From positions 1 to 33,601 of the forward strand of contig JAKAFD010000001.1 of assembly GCA_021818075.1 (NCBI GenBank): 33,601 bases of DNA, written 5' to 3'. This DNA is from a bacterium (lineage in GTDB: Bacteria > Patescibacteriota > Patescibacteriia > Patescibacteriales > Patescibacteriaceae). How positions within the stretch are numbered: position 1 is the stretch's first letter; each line of letters starts with the position of its first letter. Below are positions 78 to 31,189 of the stretch, one piece after another. The notes beneath the pieces are model-generated. The model did no database searches and had not been told where the DNA came from. It saw only the letters and a program-made list of their open reading frames with translations. The position numbers were made by a program, and so were the translations under genes.

Positions 78-133
78 ATTAGCAATCTTAAATTAAAAAT
101 GTATTATTAAAAACTTAATAAAAAGGAGAGAAA

Positions 134-511
134 ATGGCAGATGAAAAACGCCTGGATTTAGGTTTGGTCGGTAATTGCATAAAAGTAATTATGACCAAGG
201 CTGATCCGGTTGAAGCAGAGCAAATGAAAATATGCTTAATTCAGATGTATAATTTGGAAGAAAACAAAGTAGTTTTCTGGACCAAATTTATGAATCTGTT
301 AGCCAGGGCTTATAAATCAACTACCGACCCGTCAGCTAAGTATTTATTGGGGGAAGCATACAAGTTGGCTGATACCAATGCTAAGGTTTTGAGATGGCAA
401 GAGTTAGGAAATTTCAAACAAGCTTATGCCGAGCAATCTAAAGCTAAGGGTCAGATATTTGATAAGCCGGATATCAACCCGAGCAAAAGGGACAGCGCAT
501 GCTGGAATTAA
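134..511 (+). CDS. Hypothetical protein, 125 aa, no recognisable motif
   Basis: ORF track; AGGAGAG Shine-Dalgarno at 124-130; follows a consensus-like promoter. Confidence 0.55.
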   Translation: MADEKRLDLGLVGNCIKVIMTKADPVEAEQMKICLIQMYNLEENKVVFWTKFMNLLARAYKSTTDPSAKYLLGEAYKLADTNAKVLRWQELGNFKQAYAEQSKAKGQIFDKPDINPSKRDSACWN

Positions 512-5394: not shown

Positions 5395-7539
5395 TTAAAG
5401 TCCAATTTCCTTGGCGATGCTTTTTAAGGCTTTCAAACTTAAGTCCAAAAAGGCGGTTAAATTAATGTCAGCCAATTCGCACTCGGCAATTATCGCGCGG
5501 TCGCAGTTGGCGGCAAAGCCTTTGGTTTTGTATTTTTTCTCTAAGCTGGCCAATTCCACTTCGGCCAATTTTTTGTCCGGACGCACCAGCGTCGTGGCGA
5601 CAATTAAGCCGGTAACGGTTTCGGCCGCCGCCAGCAGATGCTCCAAATTACCGTTGCGTTTTTTATCAAAGTAGGCCGGGCACTGCGGCGAACCGTAAGC
5701 GTGGGAAATGATAGTATTAATTAAAAATTGGCTGGCGCCGGCATTCTTTAAAATCTCAATCGCTTTAACGCAGTGATGTTTGGGGTCGCTCTTAGTTAAT
5801 TCCCAGTCAATATCGTGCAACAGGCCGATTATTCCCCACTCCTCTTCATTTTGGCCGAAATGGCGGGCCAGCGCGCGCATTATCGCCTCGGTTTCCAAGG
5901 AGTGATATAAAGTATGGACATCGCGGATATTTTCCGCCACCAGCCGTTTGGCGTGTTTATAACTTATGCCAAGGCCACCGGAATCTTTTTTTTTATCTTC
6001 GTTTGGTTTTTCGCCCGGCGAAATTTCCACCACCGAGGCAACTTCCGTGGCCACCGGCGCCACGCCCGGCTGATAATCTTTCGGTTTCATCAGCGGAAAA
6101 ATCTGGCACTCGCGCGCCGATTTATTCATAAAAAAACTAAAAACGCGCTCGCTCATGCCATAACCGCAAGTCGGCGGCATGCCGTATTCCAAGGCTTCCA
6201 CAAAATCCTCGTCCTTGCTTTGCGCTTCCTCATCGCCGGCGTCTTTGAGTTTTTGCTGCTCTTCAAAGCGTTCCAATTGGTCAACCGGATCGTTTAATTC
6301 GCTGTAGCCGTTGCCCAGTTCCGAACCGGCAATAATCGGCTGAAAGCGCTGGGCCAAAGCCGGATTATTATCATCGCGCTTGGCTAAGGGCGACACGGTA
6401 ACCGGCACGCCGACCAAAAAGCCCGGTCCGCCGATTTGTTTGCGGCAATATTTCCAAAGATTATCAATAGCGCGGGTTAGATTAAAGCCTTTGCGGTCGT
6501 ACTCCACGCCCAATTCCTGCAATTTGGCTTCCATTTGCTCCTGACTGGCTTCCAAAATATCAATGTCGGTATATTTTAAGACTGTTTCCCGATAATCATA
6601 GCGCTCCCATGGTTTACCTAAATCAACTTCAAATTCGCCGATAGTAAATTTCAGGGTACCGAAAGTTTCTTCGGCCACGAATTTATACATTTCTTCCACT
6701 AAGGCCATACCCATCTCATAATCGGCATAGCCGTAATAAAACTCCATTTGCGTGTAGTCCTGCAAATGTTCGGCGTCCATACCTTCGTTTCTGAATTGCC
6801 GGCCGATTTCAAAAGTTTTTTCCAGTCCCGCCACCATCAGTTTTTTCTGCCACAATTCGCCCATGGAGATTCTTAAATAAACATCCATATCCAAAGCATT
6901 GTGATGTGTGATGAACGGTTTGGCGTCCGCGCCGCCGGCCGACACTTCCAGCGCCGGCGTTTCCACTTCAATAAAACCGCGAGTTTTCAAAAACGAGCGC
7001 ACCGCGTTCCAGAACTTGTCGCGCTTGATAATCATGTCTTTCACCTCCGGGTCCAGAATTATGTCCAAATATCTTTTGCGCAATCTTTCATCTTCGTTTT
7101 TTAAACCGAAATGCGCGTCGGGAATGCCGCGCAGAGTTTTGGTTAAAAGGCGCCAAGATTTGACCAGCAAACTTTTTTCGCCGGCCTGGGTAGTAAAACA
7201 AGTTCCCTCGGCTTCCAGGAAGTCGTTATTGTCAACTAATTTAGTAAAATTTTTATAAACCTCGTCGCCCAGTTCTTTTTTGTTTAAGACTAATTGCAAA
7301 CCGCCGCTCCAGTCTTCCAGGTCGGCAAAACTGATATTGCCGTGGTCGCGCAGACTGCGCAAGCGGCCGGCAATAATTATCTTATTTTGGGAAGCGCTAA
7401 GTTCCTCAAAATTTTGCAGCGCTTCGGCCACCATGGTGTCGCGATTAGTTTTGGCCGGGTAAGGATTAATGCCGGCGGCCTTAATTTGTTTTAACCGTTC
7501 CAGCCGGTCTTGCCGTTCGCTTTGTTTAGCTTTAATCAT
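5395..7539 (-). CDS. lysS: Lysyl-tRNA synthetase (class II) fused to a C-terminal HD-domain phosphohydrolase
   Basis: About 500 aa of LysRS (FEIGRQFRNEGMD, YGMPPTCGYGMSERV), a linker, then an HD module (HSLETEAIMRALA...GLLHDIDWE...ISHAYG). Confidence 0.9.
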   Translation of the reverse strand: MIKAKQSERQDRLERLKQIKAAGINPYPAKTNRDTMVAEALQNFEELSASQNKIIIAGRLRSLRDHGNISFADLEDWSGGLQLVLNKKELGDEVYKNFTKLVDNNDFLEAEGTCFTTQAGEKSLLVKSWRLLTKTLRGIPDAHFGLKNEDERLRKRYLDIILDPEVKDMIIKRDKFWNAVRSFLKTRGFIEVETPALEVSAGGADAKPFITHHNALDMDVYLRISMGELWQKKLMVAGLEKTFEIGRQFRNEGMDAEHLQDYTQMEFYYGYADYEMGMALVEEMYKFVAEETFGTLKFTIGEFEVDLGKPWERYDYRETVLKYTDIDILEASQEQMEAKLQELGVEYDRKGFNLTRAIDNLWKYCRKQIGGPGFLVGVPVTVSPLAKRDDNNPALAQRFQPIIAGSELGNGYSELNDPVDQLERFEEQQKLKDAGDEEAQSKDEDFVEALEYGMPPTCGYGMSERVFSFFMNKSARECQIFPLMKPKDYQPGVAPVATEVASVVEISPGEKPNEDKKKDSGGLGISYKHAKRLVAENIRDVHTLYHSLETEAIMRALARHFGQNEEEWGIIGLLHDIDWELTKSDPKHHCVKAIEILKNAGASQFLINTIISHAYGSPQCPAYFDKKRNGNLEHLLAAAETVTGLIVATTLVRPDKKLAEVELASLEKKYKTKGFAANCDRAIIAECELADINLTAFLDLSLKALKSIAKEIGL

Positions 7540-13165: not shown

Positions 13166-13624
13166 TTAAAATTTTATAAAACTGGCAATGGTTAGAATAA
13201 CGCCCGCGCCCAAGAGACAGCCGGCCATTTTCCCTACGGCCGATTTTAGCATGGTTCTTTTTTCCGAAACATTTTGCAAGCGCAATTTTTCGGCCGCATA
13301 ACCCTCAAATAATCCGGCGATGCCGTCAGTGACGGCGTTGCCAGCGATGCCGCCGATAATAGCGCCGGCCACGCCGGCAAAACGAGCACCGAAAATGGCA
13401 AAAATAGCTAAAGAGCCATTATCCAAAACGCCAAAAAAGATATCCGGCAAAGTAGTTCTCAATTTTATCTTAAAAAATTTCAGGGACAGCAGGCAAATTA
13501 TGCCGATAATAATCATGGCCGGCCCCATCCAAGTGGCCTTATCAATAAAAAAGACGCTAACGCCCACTATTACAATACACAGTGCGACGATATTTATTAC
13601 TGACGGGATAAATTTTGGGCGCAT
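13166..13624 (-). CDS. Hypothetical polytopic membrane protein with a Gly-zipper segment
   Basis: ORF track; 4 hydrophobic segments; GVAGAIIGGIAGNAVTDGIAG. Confidence 0.55.
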   Translation of the reverse strand: MRPKFIPSVINIVALCIVIVGVSVFFIDKATWMGPAMIIIGIICLLSLKFFKIKLRTTLPDIFFGVLDNGSLAIFAIFGARFAGVAGAIIGGIAGNAVTDGIAGLFEGYAAEKLRLQNVSEKRTMLKSAVGKMAGCLLGAGVILTIASFIKF

Positions 13625-14388: not shown

Positions 14389-14418
14389 TATCCTTAAATA
14401 CTCCAGTATTTAAGGATA
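14389..14418. promoter_or_regulatory. Perfect 14+14 bp palindrome upstream of the DUF2127-like gene
   Basis: TATCCTTAAATACT-cc-AGTATTTAAGGATA. Confidence 0.4.
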
Positions 14419-14486
14419 AGTAAAGTTTGACTTTTTTAGCGACTTGATATAAATTATAAAAACCTAAATAGTACTTTTGAATACAC

Positions 14487-14619
14487 TGTCCCTTAGCTCA
14501 GGTGGTCAGAGCACCAGGATGCGGAAGTCGTATGATAGTTTTTTAATACTAGTTAATGGAAAATTGTTGTTTTCCGCTTACGAACTTGGAGGTCGGGGGT
14601 CCGAATCCCTCAGGGGCAA
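14487..14619 (+). tRNA. tRNA-Arg-like gene (anticodon ACG or GCG) interrupted by a 59-nt insertion in the anticodon loop
   Basis: Hand-folded cloverleaf: acceptor TGTCCCT/AGGGGCA, D arm GCTC-AGGTGGTCA-GAGC, anticodon stem CCAGG/CTTGG separated by 66 nt, variable loop AGGTC, T arm GGGGG-TCCGAAT-CCCTC. Confidence 0.65.
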
Positions 14620-14630
14620 TCATTTTACAT

Positions 14631-14659
14631 GCCATCGTTAATCAACGATGGCTTTTTTA
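14631..14659. terminator. Intrinsic terminator after the tRNA; overlaps the 3' end of the HIT gene
   Basis: GCCATCGTT-aatc-AACGATGGC followed by TTTTTT. Confidence 0.7.
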
Positions 14660-15108
14660 TTCAAGAACCGTTTTAATTTTTGCGTGGCCCTCTCAACTTT
14701 CATTATATCACCTTTTGTTTTAAATTTTTTCTTGGCGTAATTTATAATTGGTCTGACTGATTCTATTTTCTTGCCAAATTTATTCATCCAGCCGTAGCGT
14801 GGTAATAAACAAATATGAAAATGGTGCTCGGTGTCCTCTCGGTGATATAAATAAATAACTTTAACGCCGAGCGCGCGTCGCATAGCCAGCCGCACGCGGC
14901 ATAAAAATTTTATAAAATCTTGCTGCTCGCGGTCGGTAAATTCAGTAAAACTTTGGATATGCCTTCTGGCGGAAATAATGACCAAACCGGGAATTAGCAC
15001 CAAACAATCTTGGTGGGCATCAAAATATCTTGATTTTGCCATTTCACCCGAAGTTATCTCCCCCGCCTCGCGCGCGCAAGCCAAGCAACTTTTTTTATTT
15101 TTAGTCAC
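14638..15108 (-). CDS. HIT-family nucleotide hydrolase/transferase-like protein
   Basis: N-terminal CLAC (as in the HIT C-x-x-C) and EHHFHICLLPR (H-x-H-x-C variant of the histidine triad). Confidence 0.55.
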   Translation of the reverse strand: MTKNKKSCLACAREAGEITSGEMAKSRYFDAHQDCLVLIPGLVIISARRHIQSFTEFTDREQQDFIKFLCRVRLAMRRALGVKVIYLYHREDTEHHFHICLLPRYGWMNKFGKKIESVRPIINYAKKKFKTKGDIMKVERATQKLKRFLNKKAIVD

Positions 15109-16772: not shown

Positions 16773-17324
16773 TCACACTTTAATATTTATACGAAACAGT
16801 TTAGTCGGCTTTGATGAAATTAAAGCAAACTTCAACCTAAGTTTGCCAACTTGTTTATTTGATATCGCTTTGCTTAAAACGGACATGTCAGTAGAATCGT
16901 TAACCGGTATCCATGTACTTACCTTTTGCTTCGCTCTAACTAATGTATCGATATCTGAAAGCTCACCAGTTATTCTTCCCTCAAACTTTACCTCATAGAT
17001 ATTGGTATTATGATCTTTAGCGCCATTTGGGTGCGGTAAAATAACTTTATCAAATTTAAAACCCAATGATTCAAGATACACCGCATTATTAGAAAGATTT
17101 TTAATTTCAATCACTATAATTTTTTTATATGTTGAGTCATTGGTGGTTATTGCCTTAACGTCTATGTAAACATTTTTTATTTTTTTTCTAGGCCACAAAT
17201 ACCATACAATCGATATTGAAGAAAAAACAAGCAAGACAATACTGATCATATCCCAAACTGCCCATATTGCCATGAATTGTAAAAGATTTCGCACAACAAG
17301 CATTATTGATTTTAAATCAGGCAT
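16773..17324 (-). CDS. Hypothetical membrane-anchored protein, 183 aa
   Basis: ORF track; N-terminal TM (ISIVLLVFSSISIVWYLW) followed by a beta-rich soluble region. Confidence 0.55.
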   Translation of the reverse strand: MPDLKSIMLVVRNLLQFMAIWAVWDMISIVLLVFSSISIVWYLWPRKKIKNVYIDVKAITTNDSTYKKIIVIEIKNLSNNAVYLESLGFKFDKVILPHPNGAKDHNTNIYEVKFEGRITGELSDIDTLVRAKQKVSTWIPVNDSTDMSVLSKAISNKQVGKLRLKFALISSKPTKLFRINIKV

Positions 17325-17356
17325 AAAGCGTCTTTTAAAAAATTTTTATTATTTTA

Positions 17357-17650
17357 TTATCCCCTCCACCACATTTTTATTGTATTAACGATAACTCGAA
17401 CAAATCCCACAATAATCAAGATAAAACCAAGTATAAGGCCTAATGCCACAATGAATCCACGCCCTTTTTGAAATATATTAAAAATCCCTACCGAAAATAA
17501 AACCCACCCCGTCGTAGTTATAGCTATCGCTATGATGAAGTTTTTTTTAAATTTTTTATCTATGTTTCTGCCACAGAATTTGCAGACCACTGCTTCTGCC
17601 TTAATTTGTTCGGCACAAAGTGGACATTTTTTTGTTTGTTCCTGAACCAT
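17357..17650 (-). CDS. Zinc-ribbon plus 2-TM membrane protein (98 aa from MVQEQ)
   Basis: CPLCAEQ...CKFCGR zinc ribbon followed by two hydrophobic helices. Confidence 0.6.
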   Translation of the reverse strand: MVQEQTKKCPLCAEQIKAEAVVCKFCGRNIDKKFKKNFIIAIAITTTGWVLFSVGIFNIFQKGRGFIVALGLILGFILIIVGFVRVIVNTIKMWWRG

Positions 17651-17654
17651 AAAA

Positions 17655-17825
17655 TTATTTTTTATAATTATATAGAATGTAGCCAATGAAAAGTAAAATG
17701 ATTATAAAAATCCAGTCTACAATTTGCCAGGTGGCAAATTTCCAATGAAAAGTAAGGCCTAGAAAAATAACTCCGGCCATAATCAGTAAAGTAGCGCCAT
17801 AACTCTTAAAATTTTCGTTTGGCAT
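17655..17825 (-). CDS. Small 2-TM membrane protein, 56 aa (below the ORF-track cutoff)
   Basis: My translation: MPNENFKSYGATLLIMAGVIFLGLTFHWKFATWQIVDWIFIIILLFIGYILYNYKK; 4-5 nt from both neighbours. Confidence 0.4.
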   Translation of the reverse strand: MPNENFKSYGATLLIMAGVIFLGLTFHWKFATWQIVDWIFIIILLFIGYILYNYKK

Positions 17826-17830
17826 AGTTT

Positions 17831-19048
17831 TTAGTTAACAATTTTTGTTAATCTTTTAGATACCCAACCAGAATTTTTTTTATTCAACTTAATTTTAATC
17901 CAATCCTTATTACTTAAATCTACTATCTCATATTTTATCCCCTTTTTTGCCGAACCGATAATTTTAGCTTTGGCGTTCGGATTGACCCGCACATTAGATG
18001 ACGTGGTGACGGTTAAAAATTTTGTCTTATTATCACTAACTTGAATTCCTAAAACTTGCGGCACTAAAACGCATGTAGCAGAAATTTCATCTAGTTTATA
18101 CCCCGAATTACATACGCAATCATTATTAACTAGGCTAGCATTGACGGGGCAGGTTATTTTTTCGCAATATAACCCACCAACAGAAATCCTAGAACCAACA
18201 TCGCATACGCAAGAATTACCAACAAGAGTTGCATTAAGCGGACAATCTATTTTTACACAAAAAGATTTAGTAGGGTCAGCTTTGTATCCCGTATTACAAG
18301 AGCAGGAGCCGGAAGAATTTTCCGATGAATTGACTGGACAAGTATTAATATTTTGGTTATAAGTTTGAAAAAAATAATCAATAGGATTTGAGTTATTTTT
18401 CTTGACACATGTGTCGCCGCTTAATTCATATCCATAATCACACTCGCATTTTTTTGTTGAGGAATTATAACTAGACCATAAACCCAGTAAATTTTGGCAG
18501 TAACTATTGCCATTAACGCATTTATCGTTATTTATAATATAACCATAATCACACTTGCAGGCATCTGATATTGAATCGTAACTAGAAAAAGACCCTAGCT
18601 GATCTCTGCAATATTCATCATCATCAATGCATTTGCCGCCCGACATTAAATAACCACTTCTGCACTCACATTTTCCACTTAAAGAATCGTAATCTGCTCC
18701 ATATCCATATCTTTTTTGGCATTCGGAATCTCCGGAAACACAAGACTCATTACCTAGAAAATCCGTTCCGACAACATAGCCACTCATGCACTTACATTGA
18801 CCAGATAGAGAATCATACAAAGACATAAATGGGCAGTCAGGAGTTGTAGGTATCGACGGTGTTGGAATATTTGGAATATATGATTTTGGGTTATGGCAAT
18901 GATATTCGCCATAAGAAAGTCCCCAACTTGGACAATTCGTTCTACAAGTATGACATCCCATACTATCAGTATTGCCAGGGTGTGCTGAAACAAAAAACGG
19001 AACACTTGCAAAAAATAGCGAGACCGCGACGACAAAGATTTTTTTCAT
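17831..19048 (-). CDS. Secreted Cys-rich modular protein: YHYH-like N-terminal motif, 7 Cys-repeat modules, C-terminal SH3b-like domain
   Basis: Signal peptide; GCHTCRTNCPSWGLSYGEYHCH; repeated C..YDS.SG.C.C..GY..; C-terminal VRVNPNAKAKIIGSAKKGIKYEIV...WIKI...GWV. Confidence 0.7.
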   Translation of the reverse strand: MKKIFVVAVSLFFASVPFFVSAHPGNTDSMGCHTCRTNCPSWGLSYGEYHCHNPKSYIPNIPTPSIPTTPDCPFMSLYDSLSGQCKCMSGYVVGTDFLGNESCVSGDSECQKRYGYGADYDSLSGKCECRSGYLMSGGKCIDDDEYCRDQLGSFSSYDSISDACKCDYGYIINNDKCVNGNSYCQNLLGLWSSYNSSTKKCECDYGYELSGDTCVKKNNSNPIDYFFQTYNQNINTCPVNSSENSSGSCSCNTGYKADPTKSFCVKIDCPLNATLVGNSCVCDVGSRISVGGLYCEKITCPVNASLVNNDCVCNSGYKLDEISATCVLVPQVLGIQVSDNKTKFLTVTTSSNVRVNPNAKAKIIGSAKKGIKYEIVDLSNKDWIKIKLNKKNSGWVSKRLTKIVN

Positions 19049-19063
19049 ATATTTAAGTTAATA

Positions 19064-19366
19064 TTAATAAGGGGCGTCAACCGTATCTACTGTTTGAAGT
19101 CTATATAAGGAATATTCCATATCCTCATAATTACTTCCCGCATAACTTTGAGCCTCTAAAATATTCTGATTAACTTCTTCAATGTTCCCATTCGCCTCTT
19201 CCAGCGCCGCTTCGTATTCATTTAATTTTTCGGTGCAAATATTATAATCACTCTCCCAGTCGTCAGCTTCATTAGACCATTCTTCCGCGGTTTTTCCATT
19301 ATACTCCCCTATAGAACAACCACTTAATAGGATTATAAACGGTAAAATGACTAATAATTTTTTCAT
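19064..19366 (-). CDS. Small acidic lipoprotein, 100 aa
   Basis: Lipobox LLSGC; E/D-rich helical remainder. Confidence 0.6.
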   Translation of the reverse strand: MKKLLVILPFIILLSGCSIGEYNGKTAEEWSNEADDWESDYNICTEKLNEYEAALEEANGNIEEVNQNILEAQSYAGSNYEDMEYSLYRLQTVDTVDAPY

Positions 19367-19369
19367 AAA

Positions 19370-19606
19370 TTAAAAACCGTACAAACTTTTACGGTTATTC
19401 CATTTGTATTGATCGGGGCCGGTTTTAAAATGACCCCCTATGTATTGACCGGTTGAGGGCTTAAAATATCCTCGCTGATATCTCAAAACCCCGCCAGTTT
19501 TATAATTTCTAACTCCATAGCTTCTGGCTTCGGCTTGTTTTGAGTTTAGAAAAAAGAACGAAAGGACGATTGCAAAAATCGTTGTTGTCAAAATAATTTT
19601 TTTCAT
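19370..19606 (-). CDS. Small secreted basic Gly/Tyr-rich protein, 78 aa
   Basis: Signal peptide ending AEA; Y/G/R/K-rich mature part. Confidence 0.55.
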   Translation of the reverse strand: MKKIILTTTIFAIVLSFFFLNSKQAEARSYGVRNYKTGGVLRYQRGYFKPSTGQYIGGHFKTGPDQYKWNNRKSLYGF

Positions 19607-19695
19607 ATTTTTAAATTTAAAATTTGCGCTAAAACATCAAGGCAATCGCCTTGGTATAAAGAAAAATTACCGTATTTGTAATATAAAGTTTTCAT
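19603..19695 (-). pseudogene. Possible 5' remnant of a DNA methyltransferase gene (30 codons)
   Basis: My translation: MKTLYYKYGNFSLYQGDCLDVLAQILNLKI; LYQGDCLDVL resembles the N-terminal (I/L)YxGDCLExL signature of N4/N6 DNA methylases; its stop overlaps the next ATG. Confidence 0.3.
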
Positions 19696-19699
19696 GTTA

Positions 19700-20296
19700 T
19701 TATTTTGGGTCTTTTAACCAATTATTTAATTCCGTATAAAAGTTCCAAGCTAATTGCATTCCTTGGTTAATTGTAGTCTCAGTAACTTCGGATGATCTTC
19801 CGTGTACCAACATGTTTCTTAACCAACGAATGGTTTTTATTTGATTTTCACCATTATCCGCTAATAAGCCCTTCTCTTTTAAAATTTTAACCAACTTTTC
19901 TTCATTGCCAGGTACTTGCTGTGAATTTGCTAAAATTACTGTAGCGGCAACTCGCAATAATCTTTCTATTTCGAAAGCAACTGATAGAAAATTACCAGTG
20001 GAATTATCCATCAATTGAATGATGTTTTTTTGTTGTTCAGCTTCTGCGACTTTTTCTTCGTTTGGTTTTGGGGCGTCGGCCGCAATACCCGGCTTACCTT
20101 TTAACTCTTCGAGATTTTTTATTTCTTTCTTTCCTCTTAATCCCCAGAAGTTAAATTCTTTTAAATCAGAAAACAATGCTATCAAGAGTACCATCAATGC
20201 AATTCCTAAAACATTGTTTGTTAAATCAGCGCCCCACCACTTGAATAATGCCGCCAATAAAATAAAAATAAGAACCAAAAAACCAAAGTTTTTCAT
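19700..20296 (-). CDS. Membrane-anchored protein (2 TM) with a C-terminal HEPN-like helical domain
   Basis: TM segments FGFLVLIFILLAALF and VLGIALMVLLIALF; K/E/A/P linker; RNMLVH (Rx4H) at 19802-19819 preceded by LLADNGENQIKTIRWL. Confidence 0.65.
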   Translation of the reverse strand: MKNFGFLVLIFILLAALFKWWGADLTNNVLGIALMVLLIALFSDLKEFNFWGLRGKKEIKNLEELKGKPGIAADAPKPNEEKVAEAEQQKNIIQLMDNSTGNFLSVAFEIERLLRVAATVILANSQQVPGNEEKLVKILKEKGLLADNGENQIKTIRWLRNMLVHGRSSEVTETTINQGMQLAWNFYTELNNWLKDPK

Positions 20297-20346
20297 ATAT
20301 TTATAGTATTATTAAAATCACCCCACGGTTTAAAACCTTAAAAACA

Positions 20347-21228
20347 TTACTCAGCACTAATTAAAAATTTAATTAATTTTTGGCTATATTCAAGAGCATC
20401 CTTTGCTTCGTTATCCGTTGCTGTTTTTCTGCCCTTATGAACAATACCATTCCTTATATTAATACTGCCTTTACACTTTTCAAAGATTTTTTCTTCAGGA
20501 AGTTCAGTGTCCCCCAAAAGTAGCTTCAAAGTAACTTTAATATTTCCCGTTAATCCGTAGTTTCTTATGTATTCATTTGCGTCGGAACTTGATACTTTTC
20601 TTAAATCACAAATTTTTCTAATAAAATCTGATGTAACCAACTCTAGGGCAGTAACACTTTCCAAAATTGAATGTCTATAGTCAGTTTGATACAAGTATTG
20701 CTGTGCATTTAGTATTAATTCGGTCCAAAAAGGAATATCTTTTTTATTTGCCAAATCCTCTTCTAATTGGTTACTGATTCTGTGGTTAAGCAATGGATCT
20801 ATTGGTTTAATACCTCCAGCAAGGCCTATAGACATACGGCCAGCGTTTCCTGTGAGCAAGTTAAAGCCAAACAAATCCTCCCTAATTAATGGTATAAGAT
20901 GGACTGAGTTTGGAGCATAGTATCTATATTTTTTTATTAATTTATTTATTAAGTCTAAAACAAAATTTTCCGACTCTGCAGTTTCTATTTCTTGGTCAAA
21001 AACTTTGTTGGTGTATATATCAACCTCGGAATATGCATCTATGCCCCAGCGGTCTCTTATTGTTTCTGTGTTTTTAGAAAAGCTGATTCTTCTGTTTGGG
21101 ACTGTCTCTTTTTTAGAAAATCTAATTTTTGTATCAAAACAATCTTTTAGTTCAAAAAAGCGCCCATCAATATTATATAGGCAATAGGGTAAAGCAGTCT
21201 TAATTGTTGTTTTATATGTTTTAACCAT
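20347..21228 (-). CDS. Two-domain protein: unknown N-terminal domain plus a C-terminal HEPN-like domain
   Basis: RNGIVH (Rx4H) at 20437-20454 within helical ...HSILESVTALELVTSDFIRK...SINIRNGIVHKG...AKDALEYSQKLIKFL. Confidence 0.65.
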   Translation of the reverse strand: MVKTYKTTIKTALPYCLYNIDGRFFELKDCFDTKIRFSKKETVPNRRISFSKNTETIRDRWGIDAYSEVDIYTNKVFDQEIETAESENFVLDLINKLIKKYRYYAPNSVHLIPLIREDLFGFNLLTGNAGRMSIGLAGGIKPIDPLLNHRISNQLEEDLANKKDIPFWTELILNAQQYLYQTDYRHSILESVTALELVTSDFIRKICDLRKVSSSDANEYIRNYGLTGNIKVTLKLLLGDTELPEEKIFEKCKGSINIRNGIVHKGRKTATDNEAKDALEYSQKLIKFLISAE

Positions 21229-21451
21229 TGGCTAAATTTTTTTGATCGGGGATCGGTGGCATTTTTGAAATGTTTTGTGCAGTTTCACCGAATTGTTTCT
21301 CAGTTTCAGCATCTATTTCTTCTTTGGTTGCCACCCCCTTTTCAATTAAAACATTTTCTAAAGCCTTCATTCTCGTGTCTCTTGATAGGTCAAAGGCAGC
21401 ATTTGGACCTATTTTAGGCGCGACGATACTAAGATATTCTTCAAATTTCAT
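21221..21451 (-). CDS. Small acidic helical protein, 76 aa, overlaps the HEPN gene start by 8 nt
   Basis: ORF track; overlap suggests translational coupling; no recognisable motif. Confidence 0.55.
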   Translation of the reverse strand: MKFEEYLSIVAPKIGPNAAFDLSRDTRMKALENVLIEKGVATKEEIDAETEKQFGETAQNISKMPPIPDQKNLANG

Positions 21452-22915: not shown

Positions 22916-22944
22916 GTTGTTTATATAATGCGAATGCCACGAAT

Positions 22945-22987
22945 AGAGATTGCCACGCCCCGACTGCCATCGGGGCTCGCAATGACA
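22945..22987 (+). repeat. GC-rich palindromic unit, family 1 (CAATGACA subtype)
   Basis: AGAGATTGCCACGCCCC...GGGGCTCGCAATGACA; near-identical ends to 23973-24015. Confidence 0.8.
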
Positions 22988-23061
22988 CGGGAATTTGGCT
23001 TTATTGTAGGCTGATTTTAAGGAAAAAGCAATCTTTACCTGTAGTGAGCGGAGTTGAACTA

Positions 23062-23926: not shown

Positions 23927-23967
23927 AGAGATTCTATCACTCCGCTACGCTCTGTTCCAGAATGACA
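23927..23967 (+). repeat. GC-rich palindromic unit, family 1 (CCAGAATGACA subtype)
   Basis: AGAGATTCTATCACTCC...CTGTTCCAGAATGACA. Confidence 0.8.
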
Positions 23968-23972
23968 AAAAT

Positions 23973-24015
23973 AGAGATTGCCACGCCCCTCGCAAACTCA
24001 GGGCTCGCAATGACA
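23973..24015 (+). repeat. GC-rich palindromic unit, family 1 (CAATGACA subtype)
   Basis: AGAGATTGCCACGCCCCTCGCAAACTCAGGGCTCGCAATGACA. Confidence 0.8.
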
Positions 24016-24100
24016 AGGGAAAGTTGACAAATTTTTTACTTTATGATTTTATGGAAGCAGAAAGTGTTGTTCCTTTTTAAATTTACGAAGGGAGTGTGCA

Positions 24101-25180: not shown

Positions 25181-27625
25181 TTATTGTAAGTAACCAAGAA
25201 AACGGCTTTTGGCCGAGGGGCGGCCCCAGCGGTCAAAATTAGAGTAAGTTAAATTTAAAGATTCGCGGGCGCGAGTTAGGGCGACATAAAATAGGCGCTT
25301 TTCTTCTTCCAAATTGTCGGTGTTGAAAAAGGGAAATTGGCCTTCATTTAAGCCAACCAGGAAAACATGGTCAAATTCCAGCCCTTTGACCTGATGGACG
25401 GTTAAAATAGGCACCTGACCGCCCTCCAGAGCCACGAAGTCAATGTTTTTGGCCAAAGCCGACAAGTTGACCAGGTCGCGCAAACTGTCCGCCGGGGGCT
25501 TGGCTAAATCGTCGCGCTGACCGAAAAATTTAACCAGCGATTCCAAGCCCGCCAAGCGTTTGGCCGCTTCCGGCTGCTTGGCATAATAATCTTGCAAACC
25601 GGATTCATTAATAATTTTTTCCAAAGCGTGCGCCGGCCGCTCTTTGGCAATTAAATATTGCCAGTTGGTTAATTGCGAGGCCAAACGAATAAATTTTTTG
25701 GAGTAGCGGGCAAATATTTTTTCTCGTTCGCTCTTGGTTAATTCCAGTTTAGCCGCGAGAATTGCCAAGAGATTAATGGTGGCGTCAACATCTTCGTCGG
25801 CGCTGTGCGTGGCGCCGGTTAAGTTAAACAGTTTGGCCAGAGAGCTTAATTTGTAGCTGCCGGTCGCCACCAAGCGTCGGGACAAATCCAAGGTATCGTA
25901 AAAATTTTTAAATTCTATTTCAATCTGCTGGCGCGCGCCGTTGGCTAAAATCATACCGATATCAAAACCGACATTGTGGCCGACGACCGCCGAGTCGCCG
26001 ATAAAATCTTTAAGCTCGGCCAAAGCCGCTTGCGGCGCCAAACCGTTGGCCTCTAAAAATTCGTCGGTCAGACGGTGCACAGCGGCCGAAGCGCCGACCG
26101 GTATGGTATTTTTTACATAGTGATGCAAATCCTTGCCCGGCTGGCCTTTAACCACTTCGCGAGCGTAAATTTGGATAATCTCGTCGCGGCCGATATTGGT
26201 GCCGGTCGTTTCCGTATCCAGCACCACTAAACGGCCGTTTTTATAATCATCAAGCAACTGGCCGAAGGGTTCATTGCGGCTGAAATTGGACAGATAAAAA
26301 AAGTCGCTGATTTTCAAAGCCGTAGCTTCGCCGCCGGCGCGAATGGCGGTCAGCGTCCCCTCGCCAAGTTCTTTGGGCGGCCGCAGGGCCACGCGATAGG
26401 CGCTGTCCAAATCAAAACGATTTAATAATAGCTTAAGGTGCGCCAGGGCGTCTTTGATTTCCTGACGGCGGAAAAAATTATAATGGTCCACGGTCAGGTG
26501 CGGCAGATTTTTGGCCGTAAAAATTTCCGAGGCCTGATTGATTAAAGAATGGGCGCGCGCCAGCACGGCGATGCTTGATTTAGGGTTAGTTTGTTTCAGC
26601 TCTTTAATCCGCTCCACTACCCAGTCAACTTCCTCGTTAAAATTATGAGCGTTAAAAATTTTTAAATTATCGGCTGAATCATCTATTGAAGCGCTTTCAA
26701 TGTTTTTGGTGCTGGCCTGCTTAAAACCGGCTAAAACTTTTTTAACCGCCGCCAACAGTTCGCGGCGGCTGCGATAATTTATGCTTAAAGACAATTCCGC
26801 CACCGGCGCAAAGTGCGTTTTGAATAATTTGGCGATAAAATGAGGCGCCGAACCGCGCCAGCCGTAAATCGTCTGGTCCAAGTCGCCGATCAGGGCGATG
26901 TTTTTGCTCGTCTTGGCCAGTTCTTTAATCACCAAGTATTCGGATAAATGCGTATCCTGAAATTCGTCCAGCTGGATAAATTTATAGCGCGCGGCCCATT
27001 TTTGTTTTAAAGCTTCGTTAAAATATAAAGCGTCCAAAGTCGCCAGCACCAGCTGATTAAAATCAACGGCGTTTTGTTCCAGCAGGGCTTTCTCATAGGC
27101 TTTGGCCACTGCCTCTTTCAAATCATCAACCGGCGGCTTATCCAGGATGCCGATTTTATGTTCAAATTGCTGAAAGCGAAAGTTGTATAAACTTTCCAGC
27201 AAGCCGCTGAATTCATTTTTGTGGCTGGCGTCGCTTAGATAAAGTTTGTCGGAAAATTGCGCGACAATTGATTTTAATATGGCCAGCTGTTCGTCTTCGT
27301 CCAAAATGGTAAAGTCGTTGGCCAAACCGACTTCCTTGGCCTCGCTTTTCAAAAAATAAGCGCACCAGCCGTGAAAGGTGCTGACGGTCAGCTCGTCAAA
27401 GGCTTCTTTATTGTTAACCGCCTGGCGGACGCGGCCGCGCATTTCCTCGGCGGCGCGATTGGTAAAAGTCAGGCATAAAATCTCGGCCGGCTTAATGCCC
27501 GAGGCCAAGGCCTTAATCACCCGCTCGGTTAAGACGGCGGTTTTGCCCGTGCCCACCGGCGCGTTAACCAAAAGCGCGCCGTCAAGCTTGTTGATTATGG
27601 TAAGTTGTTCAGAGTTAAAATCCAT
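25181..27625 (-). CDS. UvrD/PcrA-type SF1 helicase with an embedded DEDDh 3'-5' exonuclease domain
   Basis: NAPVGTGKTAV (Walker A), LDEFQDT, TVHQVKGLEFDHVFLVG, YVALTRARESL; internal VVLDTETTG, GHNVGFDIGML, HSADEDVDAT. Confidence 0.85.
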   Translation of the reverse strand: MDFNSEQLTIINKLDGALLVNAPVGTGKTAVLTERVIKALASGIKPAEILCLTFTNRAAEEMRGRVRQAVNNKEAFDELTVSTFHGWCAYFLKSEAKEVGLANDFTILDEDEQLAILKSIVAQFSDKLYLSDASHKNEFSGLLESLYNFRFQQFEHKIGILDKPPVDDLKEAVAKAYEKALLEQNAVDFNQLVLATLDALYFNEALKQKWAARYKFIQLDEFQDTHLSEYLVIKELAKTSKNIALIGDLDQTIYGWRGSAPHFIAKLFKTHFAPVAELSLSINYRSRRELLAAVKKVLAGFKQASTKNIESASIDDSADNLKIFNAHNFNEEVDWVVERIKELKQTNPKSSIAVLARAHSLINQASEIFTAKNLPHLTVDHYNFFRRQEIKDALAHLKLLLNRFDLDSAYRVALRPPKELGEGTLTAIRAGGEATALKISDFFYLSNFSRNEPFGQLLDDYKNGRLVVLDTETTGTNIGRDEIIQIYAREVVKGQPGKDLHHYVKNTIPVGASAAVHRLTDEFLEANGLAPQAALAELKDFIGDSAVVGHNVGFDIGMILANGARQQIEIEFKNFYDTLDLSRRLVATGSYKLSSLAKLFNLTGATHSADEDVDATINLLAILAAKLELTKSEREKIFARYSKKFIRLASQLTNWQYLIAKERPAHALEKIINESGLQDYYAKQPEAAKRLAGLESLVKFFGQRDDLAKPPADSLRDLVNLSALAKNIDFVALEGGQVPILTVHQVKGLEFDHVFLVGLNEGQFPFFNTDNLEEEKRLFYVALTRARESLNLTYSNFDRWGRPSAKSRFLGYLQ

Positions 27626-30376: not shown

Positions 30377-31189
30377 TTATTCTTCAGCTGTTTCGCTGGT
30401 CTTTTTACTCTTACTGTCTTTGGTTTTAACCTCTTTAACCGGGGCTTCCGTCTCTTGCTCCTCCACTTCAGCGGCCGCTTCTTCCACCACTTCTTTGTGG
30501 TTGCGTAAATCAACCAAAGAGTTGAACTGAGCCAATAAAATGGCGACTGACTTATCAAACACTTCTTCCGGGCTGATGGTGCCGTCAGTTTCAATATCCA
30601 AAGTTAGTTTATCCCAGTTGGTCATTTTACCGACGCGGGTGTTGGCCACATTAACGCCAACCGCTCTCACCGGCGAAAAGATGGAGTCAATTTCAATATA
30701 ACCGATTTCTTTCTTGCGATTTTCTCGATTTTCAATGGTTTCATAACCCATGCCGCGGCTGGCATAAATTTCCATATTCAGTTTGCCGGCCATATCGGTA
30801 ATATGGGCGATAGTCATATCTTTATTGACGATTTCCACATCGGCGTTGGCTTTGATGTCTTTGGCTTTGACTTCTTTCTCGCCGTGCGCTTCCAGTTCCA
30901 GCTTAACCACCTCATCGGTATGAATTTTTAAATTGAGCTGTTTTAAGTTTAAAATAATTTCCAACACATCTTCTTTGATGTTCGGCAAGGCCATAAATTC
31001 GTGGTCGGCACCTTCAATTTTCACGCCCACCACCGCTGTACCGGGAATAGACGATAAAAGCACCCTCCGTAAGGCGTTACCCAAAGTCGTGCCGTAGCCG
31101 GGAAACAACGGTTCAACCACAACCAATTTTTGATTCGGCAATTCGGCTGACTTAAATTCAATTTTTTTAGGCAAAGCAATATTGCTCAT
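30377..31189 (-). CDS. rpoA: RNA polymerase alpha subunit, N-terminal domain only, with an acidic low-complexity tail
   Basis: LEPLFPGYGTTLGNALRRVLLSSIPG; 270 aa; the last 45 aa are E/K/A/T-rich and show no helix-hairpin-helix CTD. Confidence 0.88.
   Translation of the reverse strand: MSNIALPKKIEFKSAELPNQKLVVVEPLFPGYGTTLGNALRRVLLSSIPGTAVVGVKIEGADHEFMALPNIKEDVLEIILNLKQLNLKIHTDEVVKLELEAHGEKEVKAKDIKANADVEIVNKDMTIAHITDMAGKLNMEIYASRGMGYETIENRENRKKEIGYIEIDSIFSPVRAVGVNVANTRVGKMTNWDKLTLDIETDGTISPEEVFDKSVAILLAQFNSLVDLRNHKEVVEEAAAEVEEQETEAPVKEVKTKDSKSKKTSETAEE

Follow-up and report, generated by a model that had tools for sequence, protein, structure and literature searches.

The introns so far described in bacterial tRNAs are group I or group II ribozymes, the group I examples lying in cyanobacterial tRNA-Leu and tRNA-fMet, Agrobacterium tRNA-Arg and Azoarcus tRNA-Ile (PMC4033280). 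Short inserts are also on record: tRNA introns of archaeal Thermoproteales occupy non-canonical positions and are said to have undergone 'transposition' (Fujishima et al. 2010, as cited in PMC10714607), and tRNAs of the Lak megaphages of Prevotella carry 'enigmatic' short inserts (PMC6784885). Here we examine a tRNA-like gene at positions 14487-14619 of a 33,601-nt stretch of DNA from a bacterium of the Patescibacteriota (GenBank assembly GCA_021818075.1, contig JAKAFD010000001.1; the whole stretch is called the window below). An earlier note, made from the letters of the window, had described a tRNA-Arg-like gene with an insertion in the anticodon loop, and had offered three options: an unusual spliced tRNA, a tRNA expanded by an extra hairpin, or a decayed tRNA marking the border of a genomic island. 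Comparison with syntenic variants leads us to a tentative reading, to which we give a probability of roughly 0.45: a tRNA-derived small RNA gene, independently transcribed, belonging to a narrow clade of Parcubacteria and not a decoding tRNA. The gene and its parts are as follows.

14487-14619 (+ strand): tRNA-like RNA gene, 133 nt, defined by the Rfam tRNA match, the minimum free energy (MFE) fold and covariation over four variants
14487-14493 / 14612-14618 (+): acceptor stem
14496-14512 (+): D arm
14514-14518 / 14585-14589 (+): anticodon-like stem CCAGG / CTTGG, with 66 nt between the strands
14521-14577 (+): hairpin H, 57 nt, recognised from the fold and from homologous hairpins in three variants from relatives (L005, L067 and L071)
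14521-14527 / 14571-14577 (+): base helix P1 of H, GCGGAAG / UUUCCGC
14528-14531 (+): 5' bulge of H, UCGU
14532-14545 / 14557-14570 (+): helix P2 of H, 14 bp including six G.U pairs
14546-14556 (+): apical loop of H
14578-14594 (+): Block X, composed of the loop-like UUACGAA, CUUGG (the 3' strand of the anticodon-like stem) and the variable loop AGGUC
14595-14611 (+): T arm, loop TCCGAAT
14619 (+): discriminator A, with no CCA encoded after it

The Rfam tRNA model RF00005 covers 14487-14619 end to end with 41.3 bits (gathering score 29; E=1.3e-5 for the whole window), placing 63 inserted nucleotides in the anticodon loop. It is the only Rfam model that matches the gene; there was no match to tmRNA or Y-RNA-like families. 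The 'top half' and core of a tRNA are complete, with acceptor, D and T arms and the residues G18G19, T54, C56 and A58, and the 133 nt adopt as their MFE fold (-40.3 kcal/mol) a cloverleaf whose anticodon arm contains a long bulged hairpin. As read from the sequence, the D arm is of class I type, and its loop, AGGUGGUCA, has U at position 20. ATGCGGA follows directly on the 5' half of the anticodon-like stem and TTACGAA directly precedes the 3' half; pair 1-72 is U-A, and position 55 in the T loop is C. All that the earlier note had said of the stem halves, the 66-nt gap, the two loops, the inner helix, the T loop, U1-A72 and the missing CCA held when re-checked. The ARAGORN run that it had called for gave no tRNA and no tmRNA anywhere in the window in the default bacterial mode; in intron mode the gene was reported as tRNA-Arg(ACG) with a 59-nt intron at position 31/32. 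Neither ARAGORN nor Rfam found a second tRNA in the 33.6-kb window.

Relatives were sought through the neighbouring proteins, that is by synteny and not by DNA patterns, and four distinct variants of the gene were compared: the window, L005 (NCBI assembly GCA_021819805.1), L067 and L071, with L004 taken alongside L005 and L068-L070 alongside L067. In L004 and L005 a gene of the same architecture stands beside a DUF2127 protein of 87% identity. L067-L070 and L071 have theirs beside HIT-family proteins (81-83% identity); -10 box, leader and terminator are shared there, and the layout differs. The three variants outside the window match the Rfam tRNA model with 35.1-48.4 bits. Each of the four sequences was divided into named elements, which together rebuild the actual sequence base by base. 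In the window and L005 (type B) the order is 5' stem strand, AU, H, Block X, T arm; in L067 and L071 (type A) it is 5' stem strand, Block X, H, 4 nt, T arm, Block X standing in each case for loop, 3' stem strand and variable loop. Block X thus lies 3' of H in the first pair and 5' of H in the second. Each layout is seen in several independent assemblies, and the proposed folds lie 0-5.4 kcal/mol above the MFE in all four variants. The delimitation of Block X rests on this verified segmentation and on a stem that covaries in both arrangements (pairs 28-44 and 32-40). An inversion of H between the two layouts was ruled out, since both its 3' strand and the bulge on its 5' side are in direct orientation in the alignment. 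Large insertions are tolerated at two sites of a tRNA, and these are the two places where H lies.

Evidence that the fold matters comes from its pairing. Core identity between the variants is 66-76%, and divergence at 4-fold degenerate sites of the flanking DUF2127, HIT and p152 genes is 0.24-0.46. By our own estimate, an unconstrained cloverleaf would have lost roughly a third of its pairs at this divergence. Over four variants and 21 cloverleaf pairs, 94% of the pair cells hold standard pairs (58 of 63 in the three variants other than the window), and six of the 21 pairs have changed on both sides. None of 500 column shuffles reached the observed covariation score or percentage paired, and sliding the partner by 1-3 columns lowered pairing to 28-56%. 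Two of the compensated pairs belong to the anticodon-like stem, where pairing holds whether or not H lies between the strands. Pairing this complete, with six double changes at neutral-level divergence, argues that the cloverleaf is under selection for pairing. Compensatory changes that keep the helices, the mark of a structured non-coding RNA under selection, are therefore present, in a small sample of four distinct sequences.

Hairpin H is homologous in all four variants, with a length of about 57-61 nt and an identity of 58-86% between variants: a base helix GCGGA(A)G / (U)UYCGC, a bulge of 4-6 nt that is on the 5' side in every case, a second helix and a variable tip. Among the changes in P1 are one pair that went from A-U to G-C on both sides and one that went from G-C to G.U, and every change in P2 preserves pairing. 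Since P2 in the window has six G.U pairs out of 14, the helix is specific to RNA of the + strand.

The regulatory elements around the gene, and the neighbour into which they run, are as follows.

14427-14455 (+): promoter-like site TTGACT, 17 nt, TAAATT, with an overlapping extended -10 TGATATAAA, about 30 nt upstream of the tRNA-like 5' end
14462-14486 (+): presumed 5' leader with the conserved GUUCUUU.G.AAUA.AC, taken from conservation in the alignment; the start is approximate
14631-14658 (+): intrinsic-terminator-like hairpin GCCATCGTTAATCAACGATGGC with a T run, overlapping the 3' end of the convergent HIT gene
14638-15108 (- strand): divergent HIT-family (Ap4A-hydrolase-like) protein, convergent neighbour; homologues are named HIT or diadenosine tetraphosphate hydrolase

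In the alignment of all four variants a TATAAT-like -10 box occupies one and the same position, consistent with the site at 14427-14455 being a promoter. The terminator-like hairpin is likewise kept in all four, including L005, where the HIT gene is absent; it reads CCATCGTTAAT.AACGATGG in L071, the window and L005, and CCATCGTTATAACGCGATGG in L067-L070. From the tRNA-like fold, the leader would be removed by RNase P.

Can such a gene decode? At the anticodon position the loops are UUACGAA in the window, UAUCGA (6 nt) in L005, UUGAA (5 nt) in L067 and CUAUUAA in L071, which would give the anticodon AUU. ARAGORN in intron mode, by the rule that gives Arg(ACG) in the window, calls L005 'Asp(ATC)'. 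When H is cut out exactly, the anticodon loop of type B comes to 9 or 8 nt and the variable loop of type A to 7 or 8 nt. Thus no one excision rule yields a normal tRNA in all four variants. The window gene has no contiguous 7-nt anticodon loop, an excision that would supply one there fails in L005, L067 and L071, and neither loop nor anticodon is conserved among the four syntenic variants. A loop that varies freely in sequence and length at the anticodon position argues for a non-decoding RNA. Other features point the same way: the T loop, UCCGAAU, has C in place of U55, a near-universal T-loop residue, position 20 is U where A20 is the typical identity element of bacterial ArgRS, and the core identity of 66-76% contrasts with true tRNA orthologues, which at such a distance would be almost identical. 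The reading of a spliced tRNA-Arg is accordingly not supported, its UUACGAA loop being replaced by UAUCGA in L005 and the loops of L067 and L071 being non-functional whatever is excised. An anticodon GCG with an intron at the canonical position 37/38 was attractive for a time, as AUGCGGA is conserved in L005; it was ruled out because the triplet belongs to GCGGAG, the conserved base of H, which lies outside the anticodon arm in L067 and L071.

Our reading, then, is of a tRNA-derived RNA gene built on a common -10 box, leader, cloverleaf, hairpin and terminator in all four variants, with the elements in two orders. A sigma-70-type promoter and a terminator of its own would start and end its transcription. 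The RNA would mature as a tRNA does, with the leader cut by RNase P, the 3' trailer trimmed and CCA possibly added, and it would stay unspliced. Its L-shaped tRNA mimicry, together with the hairpin, may then bind a tRNA-recognising protein or another partner, with no amino acid delivered at a codon; a role as decoy or regulator in a conflict system is conceivable. That role is suggested by the setting, a variable island of toxin-antitoxin and defence type, and by the fast turnover of the sequence. The earlier option of a tRNA expanded by an extra hairpin is consistent with this evidence, and the gene fits best among tRNA-like non-coding RNAs, as a variant from a narrow clade.

In its manner of working the gene would, by analogy, most resemble mimics of the tmRNA and YrlA type, as a member of neither family. 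The tRNA-like domain of tmRNA with helix 2, and the YrlA/Y RNAs, similarly join a tRNA mimic to a long irregular helix and do not decode. Unlike tmRNA, the present gene matches no tmRNA model and has no G3.U70 and no tag reading frame. YrlA RNA consists of a tRNA-like module and a Ro-binding helix and ends in a long helix, whereas here the RNA ends at the acceptor stem and again matches no model. Class II tRNAs (Leu, Ser and bacterial Tyr) resemble L067 and L071 in having five arms, the extra helix lying between anticodon stem and T stem; however, the natural variable arm has about 11-21 nt against about 60 nt here, the arm of the window gene sits in the anticodon loop, and the class I type D arm and defective anticodon loops do not fit. 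In the intervening sequences (IVS) of 23S and 16S rRNA, too, an extended hairpin replaces the loop of a stable RNA in a patchy manner among close relatives. Bacterial rRNA IVS are removed by RNase III with no religation, and are known in rRNA and not in tRNA-shaped RNAs. Cleavage in the anticodon loop of the present RNA would split the molecule.

Several observations weigh against this reading. The four distinct variants are all closely related, so that the covariation statistics are thin. The gene diverges at about the neutral rate, much as the 4-fold degenerate sites of its neighbours do. Three variants have a mismatch at pair 1-72, L005 has another at 2-71, and the window/L005 type has C55 for U55, features that may equally indicate decay. 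The upper part and tip of H are poorly conserved in L067. In three of the four variant contexts the HIT gene adjoins the tRNA-like gene, and it is lost in L005. Three small metatranscriptome runs of the source study gave a coverage of 0 at the locus and no joints; the insert is present in all DNA runs. The decoy or regulator function is conjecture. Finally, p152, a protein encoded near the 5' side of the gene, had seemed a possible functional partner, as it is missing from the distant DUF2127 loci L006-L011, which have no RNA gene either; the idea was dropped because p152 is a highly conserved, probable membrane protein widespread over phyla of the Candidate Phyla Radiation (CPR).

The explanation that survives best beside the preferred one is that of a redundant tRNA copy, possibly once tRNA-Asn or tRNA-Arg, decaying at the border of the island, interrupted by a palindrome and functionless, with its signals not yet eroded. 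The narrow distribution suits it: the gene is absent from the more distant syntenic loci of either neighbour protein (L006-L012 and L072-L079), and no RNA gene stands beside HIT homologues of 66% identity or less. The near-neutral divergence, the anticodon loops degenerate in sequence and length, the mismatched terminal acceptor pairs in three variants and the C55 can all be read as decay, as can the variable island content on the 3' side. Moreover, the L071 loop CUAUUAA is one G-to-A change from CUGUUAA, which we take to be the tRNA-Asn loop of E. coli. Decay, however, should have broken about a third of the pairs, against the 58 of 63 that are standard in the other variants and the six changed on both sides, and it does not account for a -10 box, terminator hairpin and H helices kept in every variant. 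The window DNA comes from mine-drainage metagenomes, and two near-identical copies of the gene (about 95% identity, insert included) occur with unlike flanks in sediment and groundwater metagenomes; a near-identical gene in three unrelated habitats despite differing flanks speaks against decay. Nor does the window contain an att-like repeat of the tRNA 3' end. The earlier note had taken orthologues without the insert as a sign against an intact gene, and the relatives gave none, each either keeping the hairpin, elsewhere in some, or lacking the gene altogether. On balance we regard decay as unlikely, while holding it a serious competitor.

A quite improbable alternative is a real tRNA in which H is a short, protein-dependent and possibly mobile intron, moved between position 31/32 and the variable loop and removed by an RNase III-like or other endonuclease and a ligase. 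Taking out 14519-14577 in the window does give a good tRNA-Arg(ACG), as the ARAGORN intron mode reports, and H, with its near-continuous helix of about 21 bp, would be a plausible substrate for RNase III. A gene for a 2',5'-RNA-ligase / 2H-phosphoesterase (PF13563, LigT/2H, 212 aa) lies at 7593-8231 in L004 and 4508-5146 in L005, between GT4 and GT2 (glycosyltransferase) genes and 3.7 kb from the tRNA-like gene, and may have a link to RNA end-joining; at that place in the window the gene is absent. Lak megaphage tRNAs set a precedent for short inserts that are not group I introns, found only by eukaryote-mode prediction (PMC6784885); there, however, copies with and without the insert define exact excision points and normal tRNAs are left, which is not so here. 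One hairpin at two positions also recalls the intron transposition of the Thermoproteales (PMC10714607). The likeness includes a short insert with structure, about 60 nt long, within a gene of tRNA shape, and related inserts at positions that include the anticodon arm and the variable/T region; theirs, however, form a bulge-helix-bulge (BHB) or relaxed bulge-helix-loop (BHL), are cut by EndA and leave a functional tRNA, whereas here the host is bacterial, there is no BHB, and excision gives no usable tRNA in three of the four variants.

The earlier note's claim that the local structure is not a canonical BHB proved correct: an internal loop of 2 nt/7 nt is followed by a helix of 7 bp, a 5' bulge of 4 nt and a helix of 14 bp, and a manual check found no 3-4-3 BHB register in the window or L005. 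A Pfam scan of the window ORFs (open reading frames) contained no EndA or RtcB. The insert was also rightly set apart from group I introns, which similarly interrupt bacterial tRNA-type genes in the anticodon loop but are about 200 nt or longer with a catalytic core P1-P9: the bulged hairpin here has 57-59 nt, and no Intron_gpI, group II or other ribozyme family of Rfam, small ribozymes included, matches the region even at E<=10. Splicing would leave L005 with a 6-nt loop or the anticodon AUC, L071 with the anticodon AUU and an 8-nt variable loop, and L067 with an anticodon loop of 5 nt with or without H. Anticodon identity would then differ between very close strains, a change that tRNA orthologues are not known to undergo at this distance. 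The U at position 20 and the lack of the LigT gene in the window tell against it as well. The sequence comparison therefore does not support a tRNA-Arg holding a novel type of bacterial intron, and on present evidence the rule that bacterial tRNA introns are self-splicing ribozymes is not overturned.

That H is a DNA-level element, such as a palindrome of the MITE (miniature inverted-repeat transposable element) or REP (repetitive extragenic palindromic) type, or a protein-binding or recombination site, lodged in a tRNA-like attachment site and folding in RNA only incidentally, strikes us as very improbable. H does have short imperfect inverted termini of 6-7 nt (GCGGAA...TTCCGC) and two positions within one gene, L067 and L071 have in common a perfect DNA palindrome, ATTTTGAAAAT, in its apical part, and a strain-variable palindrome with about fourfold higher metagenome depth lies just upstream. 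Yet the six G.U pairs of P2 are mismatches in DNA and on the opposite strand, and the bulge is on the 5' side in every variant. Reading of the sequences found no target-site duplication at either position of H, and H has one copy in the window with no further copy in 152 kb of related loci, so that the combination of multiple copies, terminal inverted repeats and target-site duplication that marks a MITE or dispersed repeat is absent there. The least probable proposal makes H a short mobile bacterial intron-like element, excised by proteins (for example by an RNase III-type cut and ligation) and relocating between insertion-tolerant sites of tRNA genes, which would explain its two positions in one orthologous gene and would parallel, in bacteria and by another splicing chemistry, the transposition of archaeal tRNA introns.

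If the preferred reading of a non-decoding, tRNA-derived RNA is right, these genes form an undescribed small family of structured RNAs in the CPR, in which compensatory change maintains the tRNA fold of a sequence that drifts at roughly the neutral rate. The presence of one hairpin in the anticodon arm of some orthologues and at the variable-arm position of others would then be a natural demonstration of the insert-tolerant sites of tRNA. There is also a warning: a covariance-model tRNA match with an 'intron' of about 60 nt in a bacterial metagenome-assembled genome (MAG), and an intron-mode call of Arg(ACG), appear here to be mis-annotations, exposed only through comparison with syntenic variants.

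Searches of the literature on tRNA introns and tRNA-like RNAs in the CPR turned up no account of this RNA. Pattern scans for a D arm, a gap of 46-76 nt, TACGAA and a T arm gave no match in genome contigs or in viral contigs and two irrelevant matches in metagenome contigs, L002 (tandem tRNAs) and L003 (a mis-assembled duplicate); because the pattern required an ACG loop and a D-loop form missing in the true relatives, these zeros are uninformative on the spread of the family. Positions 100-400 (-) of L002 hold a run of tRNA genes, among them a truncated tRNA-like 5' half (loop CTAATGA) with an intact tRNA-Arg(ACG) directly after it, and are unrelated to the finding. In viral contigs the conserved 5' part of H and the 3' exon each had no match, the ends of H had 54 matches, none in a tRNA-like context and thus due to chance, and the type-A junction had one chance match in a GC-rich coding region; blastn against a phage collection gave no match.

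The bacterial context asserted for the locus is plain from the genes of the window, which include FtsQ, SerRS, a LysRS-HD fusion, GreA, glycosyltransferases, a UvrD-type helicase, RpoA and ribosomal proteins S4, L17, L13 and S9. The ORF beside the RNA gene has homologues whose names come from MAGs of Patescibacteria, Parcubacteria, Moraniibacteriota and Magasanikbacteria. On its 5' side the gene is joined to a conserved backbone of (DUF2127), p152, a leucine-rich repeat (LRR) protein, GT4, GT2 and Wzy, which is syntenic across the relatives. The 3' side differs: the window has HIT, a Fic/Doc protein with an excisionase-type helix-turn-helix and a GNAT protein, L004 has a MazG-like protein and RhuM-Fic, and L067 has HIT, an ABC transporter, DUF2726 and MmeI. 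Judged from this gene content, the gene sits at the border of a variable island, in keeping with what the earlier note had suggested. The Fic protein matches the candidate defence families PDC-S23 and PDC-S05, and the HIT neighbour shows a weak match to PDB 1y23 (E=1e-4). A low-GC stretch at 17000-21300 (0.31-0.37, against about 0.44 elsewhere) probably belongs to the island 3' of the RNA gene; it contains an EGF-repeat/SH3 protein, a lipoprotein-like ORF, a protein with a HepT-like (HEPN) ribonuclease domain and ORFs without matches.

Between the divergent DUF2127 start and the promoter of the RNA gene, at 14390-14417, lies a palindrome with a perfect stem, ATCCTTAAATAC-TCCA-GTATTTAAGGAT. Its depth in the source metagenome is about four times that of the flanks, contigs break there, and the corresponding place in L005 is taken by another palindrome, CATACCAACA...TGTTGGTATG; the element may be an operator or a short repeat that varies between strains. 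The protein p152 (13166-13624, -) has no Pfam or NCBIfam match and is glycine-rich and hydrophobic, with many invariant residues. It is exactly 152 aa long, at 63-77% identity, across Gracilibacteria, Peregrinibacteria, Falkowbacteria, Magasanikbacteria and Kuenenbacteria, and to judge by composition and conservation is probably a conserved membrane protein.

Elsewhere in the window, the gene at 5395-7539 (-) fuses a class II LysRS to a C-terminal HD phosphohydrolase domain (714 aa). The UvrD/PcrA-type helicase at 25181-27625 (-), 814 aa, carries an inserted RNase_T/DnaQ-like 3'-5' exonuclease domain (residues 467-620) that falls inside its UvrD_C match (279-796). RpoA (30377-31189, -) has only 270 aa and no match to the alpha carboxy-terminal domain (alpha-CTD), possibly a feature of the lineage. 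A sequence of about 60 nt, GAATGCCACGAATAGAGATTGCCACGCCCC...TCGGGGCTCGCAATGACACGGGAA, occurs at 22932-22993 and 23960-24021 in two copies of about 90% identity separated by 1028 nt; one is intergenic, and the other lies within the 5' part of a polysaccharide-synthesis gene.

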